Shown in pieces: positions 1,688 to 18,974 of a stretch of DNA of 18,974 nucleotides. The stretch is taken from IMG/VR virus record IMGVR_UViG_2711768057_000002; one strand, written 5' to 3'. Under the pieces are notes generated by a model, which made no database searches, was not told the origin of the DNA, and saw nothing but the letters and a program-made list of their open reading frames with translations. The position numbers were made by a program, and so were the translations under genes. The first letter of the stretch is position 1. The number at the start of each line of letters is the position of its first letter. The stretch comes from a virus. Lineage: Duplodnaviria; Heunggongvirae; Uroviricota; Caudoviricetes.

Positions 1688-1975
1688 TTACTGTCTCTGG
1701 CAATCTTTATAGCGATAACGCCTGAAGTACCCTCTCGCTTCCTCATCCATACCAAGAGCCGAATGAGTCCGCTTAACTGCCTGTCTTAAATCTCCGAATC
1801 TGTCTGTAGTTGCTGGTGGGCGTGCCGCCTTACGGATACATTCAGATCGTCTGTTTGCTGCATGTTCACGTTCTTTATCGCCATCTGCCAGCATCATGAC
1901 TTCTGCCCATCGTGCGGCAGCTCTCCGGTATAGCCCTTTTGACTCCAGCTCTTCAGCTTTCCTGTCCCTTATCAT
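1688..1975 (-). CDS. Small basic regulator, PerC-family-like (95 aa)
   Basis: N-terminus MIRDRKAEELESKGLYRRAAARWAEVM resembles the PerC-family pattern (AE-LE-KGL-RRAA-RW) from memory; SD GAGAGG 6 nt upstream of ATG; TATATAAT -10-like element about 20 nt further upstream. Confidence 0.6.
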   Translation of the reverse strand: MIRDRKAEELESKGLYRRAAARWAEVMMLADGDKEREHAANRRSECIRKAARPPATTDRFGDLRQAVKRTHSALGMDEEARGYFRRYRYKDCQRQ

Positions 1976-2185: not shown

Positions 2186-2217
2186 GTATAACAGTGTTAT
2201 ACAGTGGTATACTGTAT
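2186..2217. promoter_or_regulatory. Tandem palindromes ATAACA-G-TGTTAT (2188-2200) and ATACAGT-GGTAT-ACTGTAT (2199-2217) just upstream of the 2235 start
   Basis: Perfect inverted repeats read from sequence, 18-47 nt upstream of the plus-strand ORF start; position is typical of an autoregulatory operator. Confidence 0.45.
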
Positions 2218-2234
2218 GGATATTACTCACTGAT

Positions 2235-2675
2235 ATGGTCTTTGCAATGAGCAAATCTAATCTGATCGCGTTCCGCATCCCATCTGAATTGCAGGATGAG
2301 TTTAATCGGTCTGTTCTCGCTTCTGGAGGGGATAAAACCTCCTGGCTTGTTGATGCGATTCGCATGAAGCTGAGACAGACGGAAAAGTCTATTGATTTAC
2401 GAATGCTTGGGCTGGTGGAGCGCATGGAAAAAGCCGCAGCATCGCTTATTGCCGGAAAGCCGAACATCCCACCAAAGCCATATAACGAAACGGCAGTTAT
2501 AAAGATCATTGCCGATACCATCCGACAGGGATTTGATAATGGGCGTGTGATAGCTGAACGGCTCAATGAAGCAGGCTACCAAACAAAAGCTGGTAAAGCG
2601 TGGGATAAAGACATTTACAGCGCGTGGAAGCGTCAGGGTAACAATATTAAAAGAATCAATACGCTGCTTCAGTAA
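2235..2675 (+). CDS. Small DNA-binding regulator: RHH-like N-terminus plus recombinase-type HTH-like C-terminus (146 aa; start may be ATG at 2247)
   Basis: N-terminal LIAFRIPSELQDEFNRSV is a strand-helix pattern typical of ribbon-helix-helix proteins; C-terminal IAERLNEAGYQTKAGKAWDKDIYSAWKR resembles the DNA-binding 'recombinase' motif of serine-recombinase-type proteins; the overlapping antisense ORF 2162-2566 looks non-protein-like. Confidence 0.6.
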   Translation: MVFAMSKSNLIAFRIPSELQDEFNRSVLASGGDKTSWLVDAIRMKLRQTEKSIDLRMLGLVERMEKAAASLIAGKPNIPPKPYNETAVIKIIADTIRQGFDNGRVIAERLNEAGYQTKAGKAWDKDIYSAWKRQGNNIKRINTLLQ

Positions 2676-2704
2676 TTGATCAGTGTATAAATGATATTTA
2701 TCGC

Positions 2705-3682
2705 TCAATCGCTCCCTTTCCGCCCTTCAGCTACAGGGTCGTTGTCGGCGATAACAAAACCTAAGTCCTGAGAGAATCTCTCTCGTGGGAATCCTTTGGC
2801 AGGTAAACCCATTGAATCATATCCACATCCGGGAACATTTGGTTTAGAGTCAATAAGGTCTGCAATTTGCCGAAGCCATGTTGATCCCGGACCAAGTTGT
2901 TTAACTAAGTACCAGATAATACAGATCGCGCTAAAAATCCTCTCGCAACTCTCTGGATGGAGATTAAGTCCGTCAAAGTATTCATTATCCGGTACTGGAA
3001 CTCGGGGATGCTTTCTATTCCATATTCTGGAATGGTGAGCGCAACGATTCCTTATGAGATTAAGGCACTTCAACCATTTTGCAAATGTCTGCTTATTATC
3101 AATGCCAAAACGACGTATAATTTTCCCCTGCATATGACCATTAAGCATCGCATAATATTTAGACATCTGACCAAAATCCCAGGTCTCCACCGCCACCCAA
3201 AATGGAATCTCCTTGCCTTGGCTTCGATGCCATTCAATACAGTCATCTCTGCTTTCGTCTAATTTTACTTTTTGCTTATACACCCAATGCTCGAAGGCAG
3301 ATGAGAATTTTGGATTAATGTATTTTGATGACATGTAGGCAAGTGGATCATTGCGACCAACCTCATGCGCGATGACTGAACGAACATGAATCTCTATTCT
3401 TTCGATAGCATCAATCATCAAAAGACGCAGTTTTTTGTCAAAAAGATATAGATCGTACGTCTTCTCGAAACTGGTACCAGCAAGAAATCGGTCTGTTCTG
3501 TACGAAAGACCTTTATCTGTTGTCGCAATAATTCTTGATGGGTACCAAAAACCTGACAATCGATAATATCCAACCTGCGACAGCTTACGTATCGCACGAT
3601 TTCGATCATTGATAATCATGCCACGTTCAAGTAGCAATCCTAGCAATTCGTGATAGTCCTTATGAGGCTTTGCGGCAATCAT
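2705..3682 (-). CDS. Abi_2-family abortive infection protein (AbiD/AbiF-like), about 325 aa from ATG at 3682 (ORF track extends to a GTG at 3727)
   Basis: Hallmark Abi_2 motifs: N-terminal HELLGLLLERGMIINDRNRAIRKLSQVGYYRLSGFWYP, central LYLFDKKLRLLMIDAIERIEIHVRSVIAH, C-terminal LIRNRCAHHSRIWNRK; AT-rich relative to flanks. Confidence 0.8.
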   Translation of the reverse strand: MIAAKPHKDYHELLGLLLERGMIINDRNRAIRKLSQVGYYRLSGFWYPSRIIATTDKGLSYRTDRFLAGTSFEKTYDLYLFDKKLRLLMIDAIERIEIHVRSVIAHEVGRNDPLAYMSSKYINPKFSSAFEHWVYKQKVKLDESRDDCIEWHRSQGKEIPFWVAVETWDFGQMSKYYAMLNGHMQGKIIRRFGIDNKQTFAKWLKCLNLIRNRCAHHSRIWNRKHPRVPVPDNEYFDGLNLHPESCERIFSAICIIWYLVKQLGPGSTWLRQIADLIDSKPNVPGCGYDSMGLPAKGFPRERFSQDLGFVIADNDPVAEGRKGSD

Positions 3683-3852
3683 AGTGGCGAAACAAAAGAT
3701 AATAAAAGGCCCGACCGTGAAACTCACATGCCTGAAATCGGCGGCGGAGAAACAGAGGATCGGGCTCGGTTGCCCGTAACTCTATCCGAAGTTATCCACA
3801 TGTCAATGCACAGTTACTTAGGAAACTAACATAGATACTATCATCACTCACG

Positions 3853-3875
3853 AAAAACCACTATATGTGGTTTTT
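3853..3875. terminator. Bidirectional rho-independent terminator-like hairpin AAAAACCAC-TATAT-GTGGTTTTT
   Basis: 8-bp stem flanked by an A-tract and a T-tract, so it reads as stem plus U-run on either strand; sits between the 4156 ORF end and the Abi gene start. Confidence 0.5.
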
Positions 3876-4155
3876 ATTCATATCGTTATCCACTACAGGC
3901 TGTGTCAATAATTTTTACCTATTAATTGGGTAATTTCTACATTTTCCTATGCTGGCTAGTTTCTCTACTGAAAAGTTGGCACTCCTTAATCGCTTTTCGG
4001 TTAATACTATCGGTCTTCATATTGCCAGCAGCATACGCCATCCGATAATTTCGATGCTACGCGCGCGTACTTGTCGCAAAATATCAGGCAAAGGCCAGAT
4101 TCAGAACGTCGTGATAACCACCAGCACAACATGAGATGTCATGTAACACGATTTA

Positions 4156-4473
4156 TCACACCAGATACATGTGATTGGTGTACCCGCATAAAACATTGTC
4201 ATAGCGCGTCCTGTGCGCATATACGCCGATAATCAACACATCGCCACCACTCTGACTTATGTAGAGAACAGTTTTATGGTACTCCCCTCCATCGTGCGCG
4301 TACTTGTCTCGAAATTGGTGTTTTGCTGTGGCAGTGATATCAGAAAAATCTTCCTGTTTCACATAAAGCGGATATGCGCGTACTGTAACGGCCCCATCAA
4401 CTGGGAGCGGATTTGAAATCCCGACCCAAGCTATGTACCAAATGCCATGTCTTGGATATATGATGATTGCCAT
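4156..4473 (-). CDS. Hypothetical protein (start uncertain; ORF open to 4602)
   Basis: C-terminal about 80 aa have protein-like composition, but no SD precedes either candidate ATG and the 5' part overlaps the better-supported plus-strand membrane ORF. Confidence 0.25.
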   Translation of the reverse strand: MAIIIYPRHGIWYIAWVGISNPLPVDGAVTVRAYPLYVKQEDFSDITATAKHQFRDKYAHDGGEYHKTVLYISQSGGDVLIIGVYAHRTRYDNVLCGYTNHMYLV

Positions 4474-4501
4474 TCTAAACAAAGCTAAAGGGAGGGTTGG
4501 T

Positions 4502-4858
4502 GTGAGGGGGCAGGCAGTTATAATTATTTTGTTGGGTTTAATTGTCGCAAAGTTATACCCGACTTTATCGATGGTGTTTTTTGCCATTATTGGCGCAGCC
4601 ATCTTTACTTATATCATTAAACATACCGCCTTGTGGTTCTATAAAATTGATATAGTTCAGAAGTTTGTACGTCCTGTGTCGATGTTATTACTAGCATTAA
4701 TACCAATTGGTGTTGCTTATGTAATTGATGTTTTTTACCCTTCGGACACTGAAAGGTGGTTGATAGTTTTGTATTGTTATATTGGTGTAGCTCTCTTTTG
4801 TGGATTTCATTGGTGTTTCGAAAAGATCAATGACTCTATTTCAAAGAATAAAGATTGA
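4502..4858 (+). CDS. Small integral membrane protein, about 4 predicted TM helices (118 aa from GTG at 4502)
   Basis: Strong SD AAGGGAGGG (4489-4497) 5-6 nt before GTG; four hydrophobic stretches (AVIIILLGLIVAKL, MVFFAIIGAAIFTYII, VSMLLLALIPIGVAYVI, WLIVLYCYIGVALFCGF); long open frame in AT-rich DNA; convergent with the 705-aa gene; GGCCA-TCCG-TGGCC hairpin right after the stop. Confidence 0.5.
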   Translation: MRGQAVIIILLGLIVAKLYPTLSMVFFAIIGAAIFTYIIKHTALWFYKIDIVQKFVRPVSMLLLALIPIGVAYVIDVFYPSDTERWLIVLYCYIGVALFCGFHWCFEKINDSISKNKD

Positions 4859-4877
4859 GGCCATCCGTGGCCATTCA

Positions 4878-6995
4878 CTAGTCATTATCTGGATCATTAG
4901 ATAGCCAAGTAATGATGCCCAGTCTGGCGATGGTCCGTTTTTCCTGTTCAGGAAGAGAGTTAAAAAAACTCTTCCATTGAGGGGAGCGCCTGATACGTGA
5001 ATCAACAATGTGCCCAGGCGCTTTTCCGTGTAGATTTTTTACTGCGCTCTGGAAGGCTGGCGAGGCAATTAATTTATCCGCAGCATCAGCCGCCCCTGCT
5101 CCACCAGCTAATCGAGCTTTACTCGCCAATCTTGCTCCAATATCAGCCCCAGCAATGGCTCCAAGCGATCCAAAATGAGCGCCTACCATCGTGCCTATTT
5201 TTTGAATGTGTTTTGCTGCTAGTTCGTATGGAGCTGTTACCCGATTAAATCTGTTTACAAACTCATTCAGCTTACCAGTAGATATTTCATGCGCTTTAGC
5301 ATTTTTTATTGCTCTGGCAACTTTGTATACATCATATAGTCCGCTCATTGTTTCTTTTGGCAAATGTTCAGCCAAAGTCTTTAGCTGTCCACTGTGTTGC
5401 AAGTTTTGCCACCAATCTGCAAAGCCAGATGGATTAAAGTCGGCCCCACGCTTCCCAGAGGAAAGCATATCTCTTAATGCTGTTCCTACTAGCTCCCTTC
5501 GCAATGTTCTTGATGGAGTATTTTGCATAATCTCACGAAACCCTCTCGCATCACCTTTTGCCATAGATTGAAGAGAATTCGTTACTTTATACGCTATATC
5601 CCCATTAAGTGTTTTCCCGCGAAGATTTACCATTTGCCTTTCTAAGTTTTTTCTCATAGCTACAAGGCGTTGTGCGACTTCGAAATCTCGCAAGTATCCA
5701 GTATTGGATAAGACAGATTTTTGGTCTTCAGCTAAAGCTCCATATAGTCTTGATAGCGCTTCTTTATCAGCATCTTTGTATGGCCCCTGCTTTTTATTTA
5801 GGGCATCACCAACTAAACGCCTTTGCCTGTTTAAATTTGCATACGTTAGGATGCTATCTGGGCCGGGGTTTATTGCTGTAAAAACTCGCTTTTCTATTGG
5901 GTCAAGATTATCCCACCCTCCTAAATCATCAGCGATTTTTTCCAGCATAGTGCTTGTGTTATTTGCTTCGACTTTTGTTCTTGGTGATAGAGCGGAATCA
6001 ACACGTTTATATAACTGATCACTACGGTTTTTTAGTGCTTCCATTCTACTATTTATCTGATAAATATATTTTTCGCTCATAGCTAACGCATCTGGCGCAC
6101 CAGCAACATCATCGATTATCTTGCCAGCACTAGAGGCTAATTCGCTTATTGCTTTATCTTCTTGAGCTTTTAACGCTGATCCTGTCCGTGACTTTAGGGC
6201 TTGCTCTACAGCTTGGTATTGCTCATTTCCTGATAAATGAGAAGGAAGAACTGAATCAACATGAAGCCTATTTGCAGCCTCAACAATTTCTTTCTGAGGT
6301 TTTAGATCTAGCCCTTCAAGCGAAGAGGCAAGATTTGGGTTGCCTTGTGCAGATAACTTACGAATTTTCTCTTCGGCAGGAGTAATCCCCTCAATATCTG
6401 GAATCGAAGAAACATTCTTCTTGGTTAATTTCCCAGCTATTTTATTAATTGCAGGGCCAGCAAGTTCGGCTACAGGGCCAGCCACAGCGCCAATAGCAGC
6501 GCCGGAAGCAACATCGCTATTTGTTCCATTGGCTACAATAGCCCCTTCTCCAGCACCAAGCCCTGCGGCGGCAGCCAGTCTTGCCGCCCCTTTGGGAACC
6601 TGAGAAATAATCCCACCACCACTAACAAATGGCGCTGCTTGTCCAACGAACTCACCAACATCTTGTGCGGTTGATGGTTTTGCCGCTAACTTCTGCTGTA
6701 GAGACTGAATTGCGGCTTGCTCTTCTGGTGTCATATCCTGAAACAGGCCAACACCTTTACCAACATCCATCAATCCACTGAGAACGCCATACATAAAACG
6801 GTCGAAACCGTTAGCATTATTAACAACATTTTCCTGTCTGGAATTTTCCTCTGGTGAAACCAAAGGTGATTGCTGCTGTTCTGGTTGGGCATCAAGCACA
6901 AAACCATCAGGAAGCTGTGAACTATCAGGAAACTGTGAGTTATCAGGTTGTTCATCGAGCACAAAACCTTCCGGTAAGATTACATTTGCTGCCAT
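4878..6995 (-). CDS. Hypothetical 705-aa protein: acidic Pro-rich N-terminus with tandem repeat, Gly/Ala-rich hydrophobic segments
   Basis: Long ORF; its ATG overlaps the upstream gene's stop by 16 nt (translational coupling); no catalytic motif recognised. Confidence 0.8.
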   Translation of the reverse strand: MAANVILPEGFVLDEQPDNSQFPDSSQLPDGFVLDAQPEQQQSPLVSPEENSRQENVVNNANGFDRFMYGVLSGLMDVGKGVGLFQDMTPEEQAAIQSLQQKLAAKPSTAQDVGEFVGQAAPFVSGGGIISQVPKGAARLAAAAGLGAGEGAIVANGTNSDVASGAAIGAVAGPVAELAGPAINKIAGKLTKKNVSSIPDIEGITPAEEKIRKLSAQGNPNLASSLEGLDLKPQKEIVEAANRLHVDSVLPSHLSGNEQYQAVEQALKSRTGSALKAQEDKAISELASSAGKIIDDVAGAPDALAMSEKYIYQINSRMEALKNRSDQLYKRVDSALSPRTKVEANNTSTMLEKIADDLGGWDNLDPIEKRVFTAINPGPDSILTYANLNRQRRLVGDALNKKQGPYKDADKEALSRLYGALAEDQKSVLSNTGYLRDFEVAQRLVAMRKNLERQMVNLRGKTLNGDIAYKVTNSLQSMAKGDARGFREIMQNTPSRTLRRELVGTALRDMLSSGKRGADFNPSGFADWWQNLQHSGQLKTLAEHLPKETMSGLYDVYKVARAIKNAKAHEISTGKLNEFVNRFNRVTAPYELAAKHIQKIGTMVGAHFGSLGAIAGADIGARLASKARLAGGAGAADAADKLIASPAFQSAVKNLHGKAPGHIVDSRIRRSPQWKSFFNSLPEQEKRTIARLGIITWLSNDPDND

Positions 6996-8323
6996 TTTCC
7001 GTTCCTGTAAATGATTTTCTGACCAGTTTTAGGGTTGGTTGCCGTTGCGCCTTCTGATATTCCTCCGGTTGCCGCTTTTGCCTGTCCAGTGCCAGCCTGT
7101 GATGTAGGCTGCCCGGAAACATCGTCAAATAGCTTCGCTTTCCTTCTTTCAAGGCTTTTTCTTAGCCCCTGAGGAATAGTTTCTCCATATGTATCGAGAT
7201 ACTCGTCAACCTGCTGGTTAAACTGCTGCCCCATAGCATTGGCGTTGATTTTTGCGGCGTTAACAATGTTATCCTTTGCCTCCTGCGACAGGCCGTTTCC
7301 AGCATTAAGCTGGTCTATGTATCCTTTGATTTGTCCCCATATGCCATCAGACCGCATTACCTGAACCTGTTCGCCTTCACGAACGACTGACTGCGGGTCA
7401 AGAGATTTCATGTAGTTGAAGATAATCCCAAGTTGGGCAGCGCCAGTATTTACCTTGCTAAGGGCTTGCAGAGAGTTTGCCGCCGCTCTGACAGAGTTAT
7501 AATTTTTGCCAAAATTGGTAATGTCAGAATTTAATCCCTTAATTAAGTCTGCTGACGGCTTACCTTTTTGCCCCAGCTCCATTAGCTTCAATCCCATCTC
7601 ATCTGAGTGAATTTGTGCTCGCTGAGCCCTGTCTAGTTGAGCGTTCTGGATATTTGCCCATCCTCTCGCGTTCTCCATGTCAGCCTGACGCATACTTTCA
7701 TCCAGTCGCCCTTGCTCAAGTCGACGACCTTCCATTTGATCTTTGATATCGAAATACTTCTCATGACCGAGAGAAAACAGCGCCAGATTACCTGCGAAAT
7801 GCTGGAAGCCCTGCGGGTCATTAACCTGCATTTCAGCAATAGTTTCTGGAGGGATACCTAAACGACGCATCTCCTGCTCATTATCCATCATGAACCTGCC
7901 AAATGCGCCCTGACCAAGCGATGAGGCTACCTGTGCTTTGAGCGCCAGATTGCCATAATCATCCCTTTGAGCATCATCGACATAACTCATCCCTTTACGG
8001 ACTTCCTCAAACTCTTCTGGGAATGCTGTAATAAGATTACGCATCTGCTCCCTGTCACCGGACGCATAAGCATCTGCATAACCTTTCTGGAATGCCGCTT
8101 TACGCTCCTGCTGTTGCTGCTGCTTATAAATATCAGCAACTCCAGCCAGACCTCGAAGACCTGTCAGACCAACGTTATTTGCACCTGAGCGAGCCAGTTC
8201 ATTGTTTTCGCGGATCAGACCAAGCGTTGCGTTAATGTCGCTTGCCTTTGGCGCATTCTCATTTTGCGCACCAATGCCAGCCAGAAAACCACCAGAATTA
8301 ATACCCTGTTTCCACGTAGCCAT
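6980..8323 (-). CDS. Hypothetical 447-aa protein, Gln/Asn/Ala-rich, probably largely helical (start ATG 8323; track shows GTG 8335)
   Basis: ATG at 8323 lies 4 nt after the stop of the 57-aa ORF (TAAATCAATG); MATWKQGINSGG N-terminus; no Walker or nuclease motifs seen. Confidence 0.8.
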   Translation of the reverse strand: MATWKQGINSGGFLAGIGAQNENAPKASDINATLGLIRENNELARSGANNVGLTGLRGLAGVADIYKQQQQQERKAAFQKGYADAYASGDREQMRNLITAFPEEFEEVRKGMSYVDDAQRDDYGNLALKAQVASSLGQGAFGRFMMDNEQEMRRLGIPPETIAEMQVNDPQGFQHFAGNLALFSLGHEKYFDIKDQMEGRRLEQGRLDESMRQADMENARGWANIQNAQLDRAQRAQIHSDEMGLKLMELGQKGKPSADLIKGLNSDITNFGKNYNSVRAAANSLQALSKVNTGAAQLGIIFNYMKSLDPQSVVREGEQVQVMRSDGIWGQIKGYIDQLNAGNGLSQEAKDNIVNAAKINANAMGQQFNQQVDEYLDTYGETIPQGLRKSLERRKAKLFDDVSGQPTSQAGTGQAKAATGGISEGATATNPKTGQKIIYRNGKWQQM

Positions 8324-8327
8324 TGAT

Positions 8328-8501
8328 TTACCCACGTCCAGTTAAAGTGTAAGCCAGCGCCTTATCCATTAATCCCCGAGCAATTTCGTGGATCGTTGGC
8401 GCAACTCCTACCTCTGATTTTTTACGCTGCTCCTCCTGAATTTTCTTTATCGCTTCCATTTGCTTCTCACTTATCAATACCGGCTTTACTGAAATAGCCA
8501 T
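8328..8501 (-). CDS. Small 57-aa protein MAISVKPVLISEKQMEAIKKIQEEQRKKSEVGVAPTIHEIARGLMDKALAYTLTGRG (not in ORF track; below its size cut-off)
   Basis: Translated by hand from the minus strand; strong SD AAGGGGG 5 nt upstream of ATG 8501; stop TAA 8328-8330; strand-then-helices pattern compatible with a small RHH-like DNA-binding protein (inference). Confidence 0.5.
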   Translation of the reverse strand: MAISVKPVLISEKQMEAIKKIQEEQRKKSEVGVAPTIHEIARGLMDKALAYTLTGRG

Positions 8502-8994: not shown

Positions 8995-9098
8995 CTGTAC
9001 CACCTGTACCACCATGTCACAAACCCTTGTGTGACGCGGCCTGCAGGTGGTACAGGTGGGTAAAAATGACCTCTCCCCACCTGTACAGACCTGTACCA
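8995..9098. repeat. Iteron cluster A: TGTACCACC x2 direct (8996-9013), inverted copy GGTGGTACAGGTGG (9047-9060), ACCTGTAC(C) x2 (9078-9097); internal palindrome GTCACA-N8-TGTGAC (9016-9035)
   Basis: Read directly from sequence; same core motif (ACCTGTACCACC / GGTGGTACAGGT) as cluster B about 1.1 kb away. Confidence 0.6.
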
Positions 9099-10104: not shown

Positions 10105-10210
10105 TGGTATAGGTGGTACAGGTCTGGTATAGGTAAGATATTGACCTGTACCACTATAACGCACTGTTTTTAATACTGAATTAGCAAAGTGGTATAGGTG
10201 GTACAGGTAA
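10105..10210. repeat. Iteron cluster B (putative replication-origin-like element): GGTGGTACAGGT at 10112-10123 and 10197-10208, inverted ACCTGTACCAC at 10144-10154, flanking TGGTATAGGT repeats; A-rich stretch 10209-10255 follows
   Basis: Read from sequence; lies immediately downstream of the primase-helicase stop (10238), the position where P4 carries its ori iterons (recalled knowledge). Confidence 0.55.
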
Positions 10211-10237
10211 AAACGATCTTCTTGTAAAAAGACTATA

Positions 10238-13678: not shown

Positions 13679-13869
13679 TTTTCACCCCCAAGAATTACCA
13701 GCTCGGCACGGGCATCGTTAACCAAAGATGAGCACGCTTTAATCGCATCCACGACATCAGCAGCGTCCATTTCTTCAGCCGAAAGACTGACAGCAATCAG
13801 GACAGCCGCTGCTTGCTCGATTAATTGAAGTGCGGACGTAAGGCGAGGGGTATTAATTGAGTTATTCAT
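13675..13869 (-). CDS. Hypothetical 64-aa protein
   Basis: SD GGGGG 6-7 nt upstream; start overlaps the stop of the 342-aa ORF (ATGAATAA). Confidence 0.55.
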   Translation of the reverse strand: MNNSINTPRLTSALQLIEQAAAVLIAVSLSAEEMDAADVVDAIKACSSLVNDARAELVILGGEK

Positions 13870-14890
13870 TGGTTGCCCCCGTTTTTACTGGCATTTCGCC
13901 ACCTTCCAGCAGGAAATGAACGTCACGAACGGCGAGATCCAATATCGCGAGTAACGCCTTCAGTCTTTCGTCTCGTGAGGGAGAGTTGCTCACCAGAATG
14001 TCGTTAATCACTTCTGTCAGTGTGATGATCTGGCTTGTGCGTTCGAGGGGATCCATATGCACATCGTAGGTTTTAATCATGTGCCACCTCCATGCGGATA
14101 CGACCAGCAAAAAAGCAGACGTGATCGCGCACCAGAGAACGGCGAGCATCGCGTTCAGACTCGGCAGCAATATGATGAATTTTGGCGGTAATTGTCGGGC
14201 AATCGCGGCGAACTGCGGCGATAATCCAGATAAATTGCGGTTTTTGGGTAGGGGTAGTAGCCAGCATGTGGCAGCCTCCTTGATTGATGGTTTATAGCCA
14301 CCGCCCAAGAGACCAATCTTGCTGGCGGTGGACTGTACGGAGTTGGCCTTACTGGCAATCAAGGAAACCAGCCTACCCGAAGGTAGCCCCATACAGCCCA
14401 CCATTGATAAGGTGTGCGTGTGCGCCGATACAAAAAAAGACGCTGGCGCGTCATGTATCGCCTCGATTGTCAGCGGGAGGCCAATCCCGGCACCCGTTTT
14501 ATGAGGTGCCTTATAACCATAAACCGTGTTGCCGCATAACGGCAAGCTCTTTTTTATGGACTCCGAAAACTCACTATTGGAAGCACCAGATGCACAATAC
14601 ATCGCGCTCATTTCGTTAACGTCACGCGCATGGACGAAGGTTTTTGTGGAGTCACTACACGAGCGGAAGACATCATCTACGACCAGAAATTTTCTGGCGC
14701 AGCCGCTGACCTTCTCAATGCTAATATCATCGCCCGAGATTTCTGGTATGGTTAAGGCATCCGTTCCGACCACCAGCAAATGATAAACTTTGCTTGTATC
14801 TGCTGTATTAATGCCTGACTTTGCCGTCATATTGCTGGATTTTGGCGACATACCAGCCAGTGAAAATGTCTTCTTCTGGACGGGTATCAT
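13862..14890 (-). CDS. Hypothetical ORF (342 aa as drawn; possibly composite, see findings)
   Basis: Start at 14890 well supported (SD GGAGG 7 nt upstream, ATGA overlap with upstream gene); the central part has odd composition and an in-frame ATG at 14080 has its own strong SD GGAGGTG. Confidence 0.45.
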
Positions 14891-17714: not shown

Positions 17715-18974
17715 TTAGTTCGCCCTTCTGAGAGGCGTTACGTTGTAGTCTTTTCCGCTTTCCAGTGCCACCAGCAGATCAGCCCACTGTGCCAGTGCTG
17801 CTTTACGCTCATCAAAATACTGATGGCGGTTATAAATCCCCTCTACGCCCTTAATGCGATGATTGAGGCATCGTTCCGCCACAACAGGATCAACACCCAA
17901 CGCTGCTAAATGAGTACGTGCGGTGCGTCGGAAGTCGTGAATCGTGAAATTAGGCACATCCGGCATTTCGGCGCGAACCTTAGCCAGTGCTACGGGTAAA
18001 GTGCTTTCCTGAATATGTGGGATCATTCTGTTTTGCATCTTCCTGGCCGGAAGCACCCATGCGCTATTACATGAAAAGGTGTGTAGCTCTCTCAACCATT
18101 CAACGGCTGGGGAAGGTAGAGGTATATCAATAGGGTCTCCGTTTTTGCTGCGTTCTTCCGGCAAATGCCATACCGCACCATCTAAATCAAACTCTTCCCA
18201 TCGTGCGGCGCATAACTCCATCTTACGAACGCATAGTGCCAGCAATAGCTTAAATGTCAGTTCGTTCTGGCGGCTGAATCCTTTTGCGGTGCGCATAGCC
18301 TCGAATAGCCTGATAAGCTCATCGCGAGTTAGCCAACGGTCGCGGGAAACCTCTTTACCACCAGCATCAGATACTTCAAACGCTGAACAAGGGTTTATCT
18401 CCAGAGCGTGGCGTTTTATCCCATAGTCAAAGATACGGCGTGTCCAGCGTAATACATCTGTTGCTATCGTTGGTGCTCCTCGGTCAACGATACCTTTCAA
18501 CATGTCGTCAATGTGGCGTGGCTTAACGTCCTCTACCTTCATATGCCCAATGCAGGGGTTAATATCCTTATCAATTCTCCGGCGAAGGATATCGGGATGT
18601 TTCCATCTCGGAAGTATCTGGCGCTCGAAGTATTCGGAGGCCAGATCTGAAACACGCATGGCGTTTTTCTCAGCCTCCATTTTTGCCAGTGCTTCAGCTT
18701 TTCGTTCCTGTTTCTCTGCTGCTACGTCATAGCCAAGAGCAACTCTGGCTGACAGCTCTTTTGCTGTTTCTCTGGCTTTTGATAGTGACAGTTCGGAGTA
18801 AGAGCCTATAACCATAGCCCGCTGCTTTCCTGCGAGCTTATAGCGGAATCGCCAGAACGGGACTGTGTAGTTTTTGGGGTAGCAAATATAAAGGCCGTTG
18901 CCGTCTGCCTTGCCATCAAATCTGTCTCCCGCCTTTATCCATGCGCGGATCTGCATATCTGTGAGTTTTGGCAT
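17715..18974 (-). CDS. Tyrosine site-specific integrase, P4/CP4-57 family (419 aa, start codon is the last 3 nt of the window)
   Basis: N-terminus MPKLTDMQIRAWIKAG...GLYICYPKNYTVPFWRFRYKLAGKQRAMVIGSYSELSLSKARE is the typical P4-like integrase arm-binding domain; C-terminal catalytic region HDFRRTARTHLAALGV...LNHRIKGVEGIYNRHQY carries the R...H-x-x-R...Y signature. Confidence 0.95.
   Translation of the reverse strand: MPKLTDMQIRAWIKAGDRFDGKADGNGLYICYPKNYTVPFWRFRYKLAGKQRAMVIGSYSELSLSKARETAKELSARVALGYDVAAEKQERKAEALAKMEAEKNAMRVSDLASEYFERQILPRWKHPDILRRRIDKDINPCIGHMKVEDVKPRHIDDMLKGIVDRGAPTIATDVLRWTRRIFDYGIKRHALEINPCSAFEVSDAGGKEVSRDRWLTRDELIRLFEAMRTAKGFSRQNELTFKLLLALCVRKMELCAARWEEFDLDGAVWHLPEERSKNGDPIDIPLPSPAVEWLRELHTFSCNSAWVLPARKMQNRMIPHIQESTLPVALAKVRAEMPDVPNFTIHDFRRTARTHLAALGVDPVVAERCLNHRIKGVEGIYNRHQYFDERKAALAQWADLLVALESGKDYNVTPLRRAN

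Follow-up and report, generated by a model that had tools for sequence, protein, structure and literature searches.

An AbiF-type abortive-infection gene with a conserved leader RNA and its convergent small neighbour as probable independent units of a satellite defence hotspot

The 18,974-nt viral stretch IMGVR_UViG_2711768057_000002 (hereafter the window, with position 1 as its first letter and all coordinates referring to it) carries an abortive-infection (Abi) gene placed tail-to-tail with a small gene for a putative two-domain DNA-binding protein. The original prediction, made from the sequence alone, had proposed that both genes could work as a regulated module or as a toxin with an antitoxin-like partner. 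Such a two-gene module was not supported by our analysis. In our assessment, the two genes are probably independent units, joined at a recombination junction within the distal hotspot of an EcCIMP1-like island, the AbiF-type unit being controlled by RNA and the small gene belonging to the island core. By analogy with characterised AbiF systems, the likely partner of the Abi gene is a conserved structured leader RNA located just upstream of it.

Both open reading frames (ORFs) were found tail-to-tail as originally described, the small one at 2235-2675 on the plus strand and the longest form of the Abi ORF at 2705-3727 on the minus strand, with 29 nt separating their stop codons. The small ORF does span 146 aa as first called, but the probable protein is 142 aa long, encoded at 2247-2675 (+), since the homologues begin MSKSNL and the likely start is thus ATG 2247. 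The 340-aa version of Abi was also rejected, because its GTG start at 3727 lies inside the leader RNA, and the homologues begin MIAAKP. The retained abiF-type gene occupies 2705-3682 (-) and encodes 325 aa from ATG 3682, which is the form found in public collections (P0121, 100% identical). The family is known, RefSeq already names the protein 'Abi family protein', and its location is of a familiar type. The AT-rich character attributed to this DNA was only partly confirmed, as its GC content (0.41-0.44) is below that of most of the island (0.45-0.54), but only mildly so.

The 325-aa protein is, from its sequence, a clear member of the Abi_2/AbiD/AbiF family. The PF07751 (Abi_2) profile search, suggested earlier as a check, gave E=2e-52 and 178.6 bits, far over the curated cut-off of 25.6, and covered profile positions 2-184 of 184, while the PADLOC AbiD profile and PHROG 2158 (abortive-infection protein) matched with E=4.9e-58 and E=1.6e-56, respectively. 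Additionally, a profile of the family matched the AbiF chain 8VZ6_A in the PDB over residues 5-306, nearly its full length (E=6e-45). The signatures YYRLSG (residues 39-44) and RNRCAHH (211-217) are both at least 97% conserved among 112 homologues. The latter contains a HEPN-type Rx4H motif (R211-N-R-C-A-H216), in which R211, N212, A215, H216 and the following H217 reach the same level of conservation and which aligns with the corresponding motif in 8VZ6. The protein is predicted on these grounds to be a HEPN RNase toxin. The Abi_2 assignment and the YYRLSG signature originally put forward were thus upheld by Pfam, PADLOC, homology to 8VZ6 and motif conservation. Some family members carry, judging from their domain matches, a covalently linked DNA-binding domain, as observed in P0179, a 440-aa homologue (50% identical) fused to XRE-type HTH_3/HTH_37 domains.

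The predicted Abi transcript begins with a conserved, structured 5' leader RNA of about 79 nt (3695-3773, minus strand), strictly linked to the Abi gene. This block, located directly 5' of the ORF, was found by aligning the upstream regions of Abi homologues from unrelated contexts, and its pattern, written as a regular expression, is present in 86 of 88 Abi loci. The 63 distinct sequences obtained align well, and RNAalifold folded them into an 8-bp outer stem (P1) and a 7-bp inner stem (P2) around a variable hairpin, followed by a U-rich tract. Double compensatory changes occur in 10 of the 15 pairs, and the outer stem is found as CCCGA/UCGGG, CCCAA/UUGGG, CCCGG/CCGGG, CUUAA/UUAAG and CCUGA/UCAGG. 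Of the alignment cells, 91.9% are paired (80.1% in shuffles, 32-46% in slid controls) and 113 are changed on both sides (34.5 in shuffles); the covariation score is 0.414 (0.203 in shuffles), each of these three observed values being reached by 0 of 500 shuffles. Moreover, the unpaired nucleotides (CAA..G, CC.CUG, UUAyG, CCUUCU) are invariant across proteins that diverge from 43 to 100% identity.

A covariance model (R1) built from this alignment was then run on Abi loci and controls. It was verified that all 79 metagenomic loci having upstream DNA, including two outside the training set, contain exactly one sense-strand match just 5' of the Abi ORF, as do all 13 of the other Abi loci, and that no match above 21 bits occurs in Abi-free small-gene loci or in P22. 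The leader is matched by no family of Rfam 15, abiF (RF03085) included, and the lactis-plasmid RNA was discarded as a candidate family, since its best Rfam score of 18 bits, compared with a gathering threshold of 70, is at chance level. The leader appears to be a new RNA class not captured by Rfam, and its alignment could widen the coverage of AbiF-associated RNAs in that database. These RNAs are of particular interest, as AbiF and its RNA have been proposed as the ancestors of Cas13 and crRNA.

Upstream of the leader, a promoter scan identified a sigma-70-type promoter of the abi unit at 3779-3806 on the minus strand (TTGACA-16-TAGAGT, 10/12 matches). The TTGACA element is kept at the same distance from the leader motif in nearly all diverse Abi loci, and the fixed spacing of both the -35 and -10 hexamers puts the expected transcript start close to the motif's first base (promoter 3806-3779, motif 3773-3695, ATG 3682). 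At the other end of the leader, the 8-bp, GC-rich P1 precedes the U-rich tract CUUUUAUUAUCUUUUGUUU, located 13-20 nt before the Abi start codon, and no Shine-Dalgarno sequence is evident before this start in the window. A hairpin read from the sequence at 3852-3877 (AAAAACCAC-TATAT-GTGGTTTTT), with A/T runs on both sides, resembles a bidirectional terminator upstream of the abi promoter; hairpins of this kind recur at the corresponding position in other enterobacterial Abi loci, and this one may shield abi from read-through coming from the ejection-protein genes. As a separate observation, in many enterobacterial loci (L072-L079, L095, L098, L108, L111, L060 and L048) the TTGACA -35 of the Abi promoter is immediately preceded, on its 5' side, by a perfect palindrome of 12 bp, GTGACATGTCAC (variant GTGACCGGTCAC), which suggests that a dimeric regulator acts at some Abi promoters. 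This type of palindrome is missing in the window (3807-3825) and in the second E. coli Abi allele.

The Abi_2/AbiF proteins have been described as toxic HEPN RNases that are neutralised by a noncoding RNA (ncRNA) encoded in cis upstream of them (PMC12373285). In Clostridioides difficile, RCd22 has two modes of action, premature termination in cis and protein binding in trans (PMC12373285), and the Prevotellaceae PbAbiF was solved as a dimer bound to the AbiFr RNA (PDB 8VZ6; PMC12737573). The window unit resembles these AbiF/AbiFr systems (PbAbiF and C. difficile AbiFCd/RCd22) in the full-length homology of the protein, with its Abi_2 domain and HEPN Rx4H motif, in a structured ncRNA that lies between promoter and ORF on the same transcript and ends in a stem and a U-rich tract, and in being carried by a phage-related mobile element. 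However, it differs in that its leader is missed by RF03085 and contains one copy of the motif instead of the two abiF motifs of RCd22, and in that its host element is a satellite accessory hotspot and not a prophage lysis module. The plasmid-borne lactococcal AbiD, AbiD1 and AbiF belong to the same protein family and likewise consist of a single protein-coding gene. For AbiD1, a regulatory 5' untranslated region (5'UTR), a short prematurely terminated transcript and phage-activated translation were reported (PMC12373285). On the other hand, the window unit has a Gram-negative host, a chromosomal satellite context and low sequence identity to the lactococcal proteins.

Considering the homology to 8VZ6 and the universally conserved, covarying leader, Abi and its leader are most likely, by analogy, an RNA-controlled, type III-like toxin module, in which an RNA-antitoxin is paired with a HEPN RNase, carried as cargo. 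The leader itself is a candidate cis-encoded antitoxin and/or attenuator of the AbiFr/RCd22 kind. The roles proposed for it draw on two homologous cases, the solved AbiF-ncRNA complex and C. difficile AbiF/RCd22. The unit would be self-contained, comprising its own sigma-70 promoter, the structured leader of about 79 nt and the 325-aa putative RNase. By means of the P1 stem and the U-rich tract, the leader would attenuate read-through into the toxin ORF, and it would also bind and neutralise the RNase as a type III-like antitoxin. Phage infection might then upset the balance between leader and RNase, freeing the latter and aborting the infection. From a practical viewpoint, the cloning of Abi should take in the 125 bp upstream that contain promoter and leader, as the ORF without them is likely to be toxic or misregulated.

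The distribution of the two genes does not follow the pattern of a module. Among 5426 complete E. coli genomes, the small gene was found in 360 and this Abi in 74; the small gene adjoins Abi in 73 of these 74, and occurs without this Abi in 286 of the 360. In the non-Abi genomes, the DNA match ends at nt 411 of the 441 nt of the small gene; therefore, the junction with variable DNA falls in its last ten codons, which encode the only variable part of the protein. A collection with one genome per species holds 46 loci encoding the small protein, and Abi lies downstream in only two (Raoultella and Rahnella), being absent from the other 44. Seen from the Abi side, 68 metagenomic loci with at least 500 nt of downstream DNA contain an intact convergent small gene in 21 cases, only a remnant in three (30 codons of the 3' end in both L073 and L077, and a degenerate copy in L092) and none in 44, and the small gene is missing from all 29 metagenomic loci whose Abi is less than 49.5% identical. 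Beside the L073 and L077 remnants the Abi ORF is uninterrupted, and L048, with a 5'-truncated small gene, has a full-length one. Unrelated islands harbour Abi homologues as well, and in four out of seven contexts examined the small gene was not close by. In the Edwardsiella locus (L058), the 141-aa gene that converges on Abi was considered as a relative of the small gene and proved unrelated.

Within Enterobacterales, however, the two genes often lie side by side, and a second, divergent Abi allele uses the same slot. Such a pattern would be expected from a common hotspot whose homology arm lies within the small gene, and the link between Abi and the small gene is probably one of hotspot architecture, not of function. 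The regulated or antitoxin-like pair originally proposed does not agree with a small gene that mostly occurs without Abi and an Abi that is commonly found without the small gene or beside a remnant of it. Regulatory pairing is further contradicted by the convergent orientation, the separate promoters and the lack of an operator copy at the Abi promoter; in fact, the operator of the small gene occurs once in the window, even when three mismatches are allowed. In addition, Abi has its own promoter and a universally conserved leader, which matches, by analogy, the published AbiF antitoxin (PMC12373285, PMC12737573). Thus, the case illustrates that tight local adjacency, seen in 73 of 74 E. coli genomes, can mislead when no functional link exists. 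It was also observed that the last 30 or so codons of the small gene travel with the Abi cassette (L073 3576-3665, L077 3498-3587, L048 7998-8174 and window 2646-2675), and that fragments of just this part lie downstream of Abi genes outside an intact island backbone.

The small protein has 369 homologues at E<=1e-3, of about 143 aa and at least 60% identical, with no Pfam domain recorded for them; where a source organism is listed, it nearly always belongs to Enterobacterales. It plausibly combines an N-terminal Arc/Mnt-like ribbon-helix-helix (RHH) domain and a linker helix with a C-terminal recombinase-like helix-turn-helix (HTH) domain (Pfam HTH_62 / Recombinase). The AlphaFold (AF2) monomer model contains an extended N-terminus, helices at 13-25 and 30-42 with low pLDDT (predicted local distance difference test), and the linker helix at 50-68; the strand-like N-terminus and the two helices after it have the layout of an RHH fold, and low confidence in this N-terminal part would be expected for the monomer model of a dimeric fold. 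The C-terminal domain, modelled alone, forms four helices with a pLDDT of 96.9. Additionally, the protein matched PHROG 30270, of unknown function, with E=1.3e-4, and one public record labels a homologue 'Arc-like DNA binding domain protein'.

The operator palindromes noted originally upstream of the small gene are real, namely GTATAAC-AGT-GTTATAC at 2186-2202 (+) and ATACAGT/ACTGTAT at 2199-2217. The operator and promoter occupy 2186-2217 (+), where GTATAAC-N3-GTTATAC, formed by two half-sites at 10-bp spacing, abuts an extended -10 (TG at 2205-2206 and TATACT at 2208-2213, plus strand). A 17-bp element is present in 50 of 51 loci, starting 56-70 nt ahead of the small gene's start codon and abutting a TGnTAnnnT extended -10, inside otherwise unalignable DNA. 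Its sequence varies together with the predicted beta-strand of the protein: the (N/T)L(I/V)AFR strand is paired with GTATAAC-N3-GTTATAC in 30 of the 51 loci and (L/I)SVTFR with GTCTTAC-N3-GTCTTAC in 20, with no mixed pairing. This covariation is suggestive, with limited statistical weight, as the two classes may stem from one ancestral switch. This comparison is nevertheless the best evidence obtained for DNA binding of the RHH type. The originally proposed two-domain DNA-binding protein with its own operator is supported, its RHH and HTH labels being indirect. The 17-bp element is therefore a candidate autorepressor operator, as far as sequence can indicate, and the small protein is most likely an autorepressed island regulator. 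An iteron array of GTTGGTTCA located at 2012-2132 was tried as an alternative operator and rejected, given that the same 9-mer accompanies both beta-strand classes and is absent from many loci, and that a second copy of the array lies beside a DUF927-type replicase elsewhere.

As the second unit, the small gene would be a core island gene whose protein uses the RHH beta-strand to bind the repeat, of 10-bp spacing, that overlies its own promoter, and thereby represses itself, as footprint position and covariation suggest. Its nearly invariant C-terminal HTH probably binds, more speculatively, a conserved partner from the island or the helper phage, and the highly conserved 3' part of the gene could serve as a homology arm for the exchange of cargo cassettes.

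Several observations weigh against this picture of an RNA-controlled toxin and an unrelated RHH-type neighbour. Neither the window leader nor L105 was matched by RF03085 at E<=10, and a set of 20 loci yielded nothing at its gathering score; tandem repeats of the RNA unit were absent, with one copy per locus in the 79 and 13 Abi loci, so that equivalence to AbiFr is an analogy. The window leader alone folds no better than its shuffles (z = -0.73), and P1 is not among the sites called by the terminator scan. The small-protein N-terminus has no Pfam match, a HMMER profile of its family found nothing among PDB sequences, and the RHH assignment, plausible from the model, is made without a significant profile match. 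With respect to independence, about 20% of the E. coli genomes having the small gene carry this one Abi allele, and a second allele, 51% identical, is present in 55 E. coli genomes, in the same slot in the two cases inspected. The adjacency persists while both genes diverge, and a facultative interaction between small protein and Abi is possible.

If the leader were only a cis-acting expression control, an attenuator or translational switch as proposed for AbiD1, and not a trans-acting antitoxin that binds the protein, this would agree with P1 and the U-rich tract so close to the start codon without an evident Shine-Dalgarno sequence, with the short transcript and phage-activated translation through the 5'UTR known for AbiD1 (PMC12373285), and with a single-copy leader, unlike the repeats of type III antitoxins. 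However, its invariant unpaired nucleotides suggest a protein-binding surface, not a bare terminator, and the homologous AbiF was solved bound to its ncRNA (8VZ6), which makes purely cis-acting control unlikely, albeit worth considering. A different possibility is that the small gene acts generically on any cargo of the slot, for instance by convergent transcription producing antisense RNA that damps the cargo until island induction. Both the terminator scan and reading of the sequence found no terminator-like site in the 29-nt gap between the two genes, and the small gene keeps its position and orientation at the slot edge in the loci examined. Nevertheless, the first downstream cargo ORF is found on either strand, in several loci the cargo is hundreds of bases away or co-directional, and the proposal is purely inferential and involves a gene that is probably autorepressed and weakly expressed; we regard it as very unlikely.

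A dedicated regulator or protein antitoxin of Abi, and thus a two-gene system, could be argued from the fact that RHH proteins are common antitoxins, together with the tail-to-tail arrangement across 29 nt, the adjacency in 73 of the 74 E. coli genomes with this allele, the second allele in the same position and the small gene adjacent and convergent in 21 of the 68 diverse Abi loci. On the other hand, convergent genes with separate promoters and no operator copy near the Abi promoter offer little for such a system; the small gene lives without any Abi in most genomes and species, beside unrelated self-contained defence systems, and Abi does without it (44 of 68) or keeps a remnant. Additionally, the documented antitoxin of the Abi family is an RNA and a conserved RNA is present here, all of which renders the two-gene system highly improbable. 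Independent units, with the Abi gene under RNA control, therefore represent our preferred reading.

The surroundings of both genes correspond to an integrative island between yicC and the chromosomal dinD, as deduced from a near-identical region in E. coli EPSSH018. The window contains chromosomal dinD at 1-837 and the integrase at 17715-18974, and the order from the yicC side is integrase, AlpA-like HTH, AntA/B antirepressor, Ash-family protein, primase-helicase, two DNA-ejection genes, Abi, small gene and PerC. The gene set (integrase, AlpA, primase-replicase and regulators, with no capsid, tail or lysis genes), the size of about 15-20 kb and the fixed yicC-dinD site, together with the int-alpA RNA (RF02996; 17640-17706, minus strand; Rfam, 61 bits, above the gathering threshold), describe a satellite. 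EcCIMP1 was reported as a phage-inducible chromosomal island (PICI) mobilised by a P22-like helper, with a gene content that matches that of the window island (PMC11773190), and by its sequence the latter is an EcCIMP1-like PICI. The PICIs carry immune systems at their 5' or 3' ends (PMC11364771); thus, the idea of anti-phage cargo at the distal end of the island was right, and conventional for these elements.

The slot beside the small gene is, on the evidence of its sequence content, a defence hotspot of which the small gene forms the conserved flank, with the same position and orientation at the slot edge in the loci examined. Sampled non-Abi E. coli genomes have an ImmA/IrrE pair or small hypothetical genes in the slot. 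Elsewhere, PADLOC assigned the first downstream ORFs to PDC-M18, ShosTA, SoFic, PsyrA, capP-like peptidases, PDC-S42 and PDC-S24, and Pfam to RnlA/RnlB, PIN_12 and Fic. The arrangement resembles the hotspots of other phage satellites (PICI 5'/3' regions and P4-like elements), in which a variable slot lies between backbone genes at the end of the element (PMC11364771, PMC9122126), and differs from them in having a specific RHH-HTH gene as flank, at the position of mnt in P22, with the junction in its last 30 nt or so. The role of the small gene as conserved flank and recombination arm appears new, as it was not described in the literature searched, and the gene is a handy marker for mining this satellite-borne hotspot in Enterobacterales. 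Many hotspot ORFs, in L002 (6461-7327) and other loci, have no PADLOC or Pfam assignment; in view of the known defence systems that otherwise occupy the slot, these ORFs are candidate defence genes not yet described.

The likeness to P22 extends to the neighbouring genes. The 451-aa island protein shares 53% identity with P22 gp20 over the N-terminal 212 residues of the latter, and the region 4433-8335 parallels P22 (L066 10069-14770) in having a gp20-like gene, a second 'DNA transfer' gene, an opposite-strand membrane ORF, a variable slot and an opposite-strand RHH gene. This order mirrors P22 genes 20-16-sieA-mnt, where the gp16 and SieA labels come only from PHROG and the precomputed Pfam labels of L059 neighbours; among P22 gp16, SieA, Mnt, Arc and gp20, only gp20 gave a significant BLAST match to the window. 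As in P22 Mnt/Arc (immI), the small gene has its particular position and orientation relative to the gp20-like ejection gene, and its operator overlaps its own promoter. Its protein aligns in register with Mnt residues 7-49, including the FR-P-E ... G ... S/T pattern, although with a hhalign probability of only 7%. However, it is twice as long, contains the extra recombinase-like HTH, has no ant gene adjacent and was not matched in a tblastn search of 50,697 phage genomes. It was also noted that a satellite with its own ejection proteins is unusual, and this island carries the gp20-like one (53% over 212 aa).

A broader proposal joins both units. According to it, the leader represents a separate class of AbiF antitoxin RNA in proteobacteria, single-copy, transcribed from +1, built of P1 and P2, missed by RF03085 and strictly coupled to a large Abi_2 clade of 43-100% identity. 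The RHH-HTH protein, in turn, is a satellite-specific, Mnt-like regulator whose gene marks an Enterobacterales defence hotspot and is its recombination arm. Its operator specificity takes two forms, according to three residues of the beta-strand, and its second domain, which is invariant and binds DNA or protein, could sense the helper phage. Taken as a whole, this proposal is tentative, with chances that we place somewhat below even.

Other features of the island lie outside these two units. The PerC-family protein (1688-1975, minus strand; Pfam E=5.9e-33) is encoded divergently from the small gene and matches the ANR negative-regulator family weakly (26 bits against a threshold of 32); the EcCIMP1 PerC homologue was reported to repress, not activate, the enterocyte effacement locus (LEE) (PMC11773190). 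Two Rfam families scored above their gathering thresholds on the minus strand, the C4 antisense RNA at 14321-14408 (79 bits) and the Hfq-binding RNA isrK at 14433-14509 (65 bits). Since both lie inside the 342-aa 'Ash-like' ORF call (13862-14890), this call is probably over-extended, and a c4-ant immunity circuit of the P1/P7 type may control the downstream antirepressor.

The GTTGGTTCA array mentioned above, in the intergenic region between PerC and the small gene, consists of three direct copies at 9-bp spacing and three inverted copies at 21-bp spacing, six in total against 0.18 expected. A sister island (L001 18513-18625 and 27901-28003) has an identical second array just past the 3' end of its DUF927-type primase-helicase, and this pair resembles the ori/crr pair of P4. 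The window replicase has a different C-terminal half and is flanked by other iterons (TGGTAYAGGT) in two clusters (8995-9098 and 10105-10211); therefore, the array in the window looks like an orphan left by mosaic recombination.

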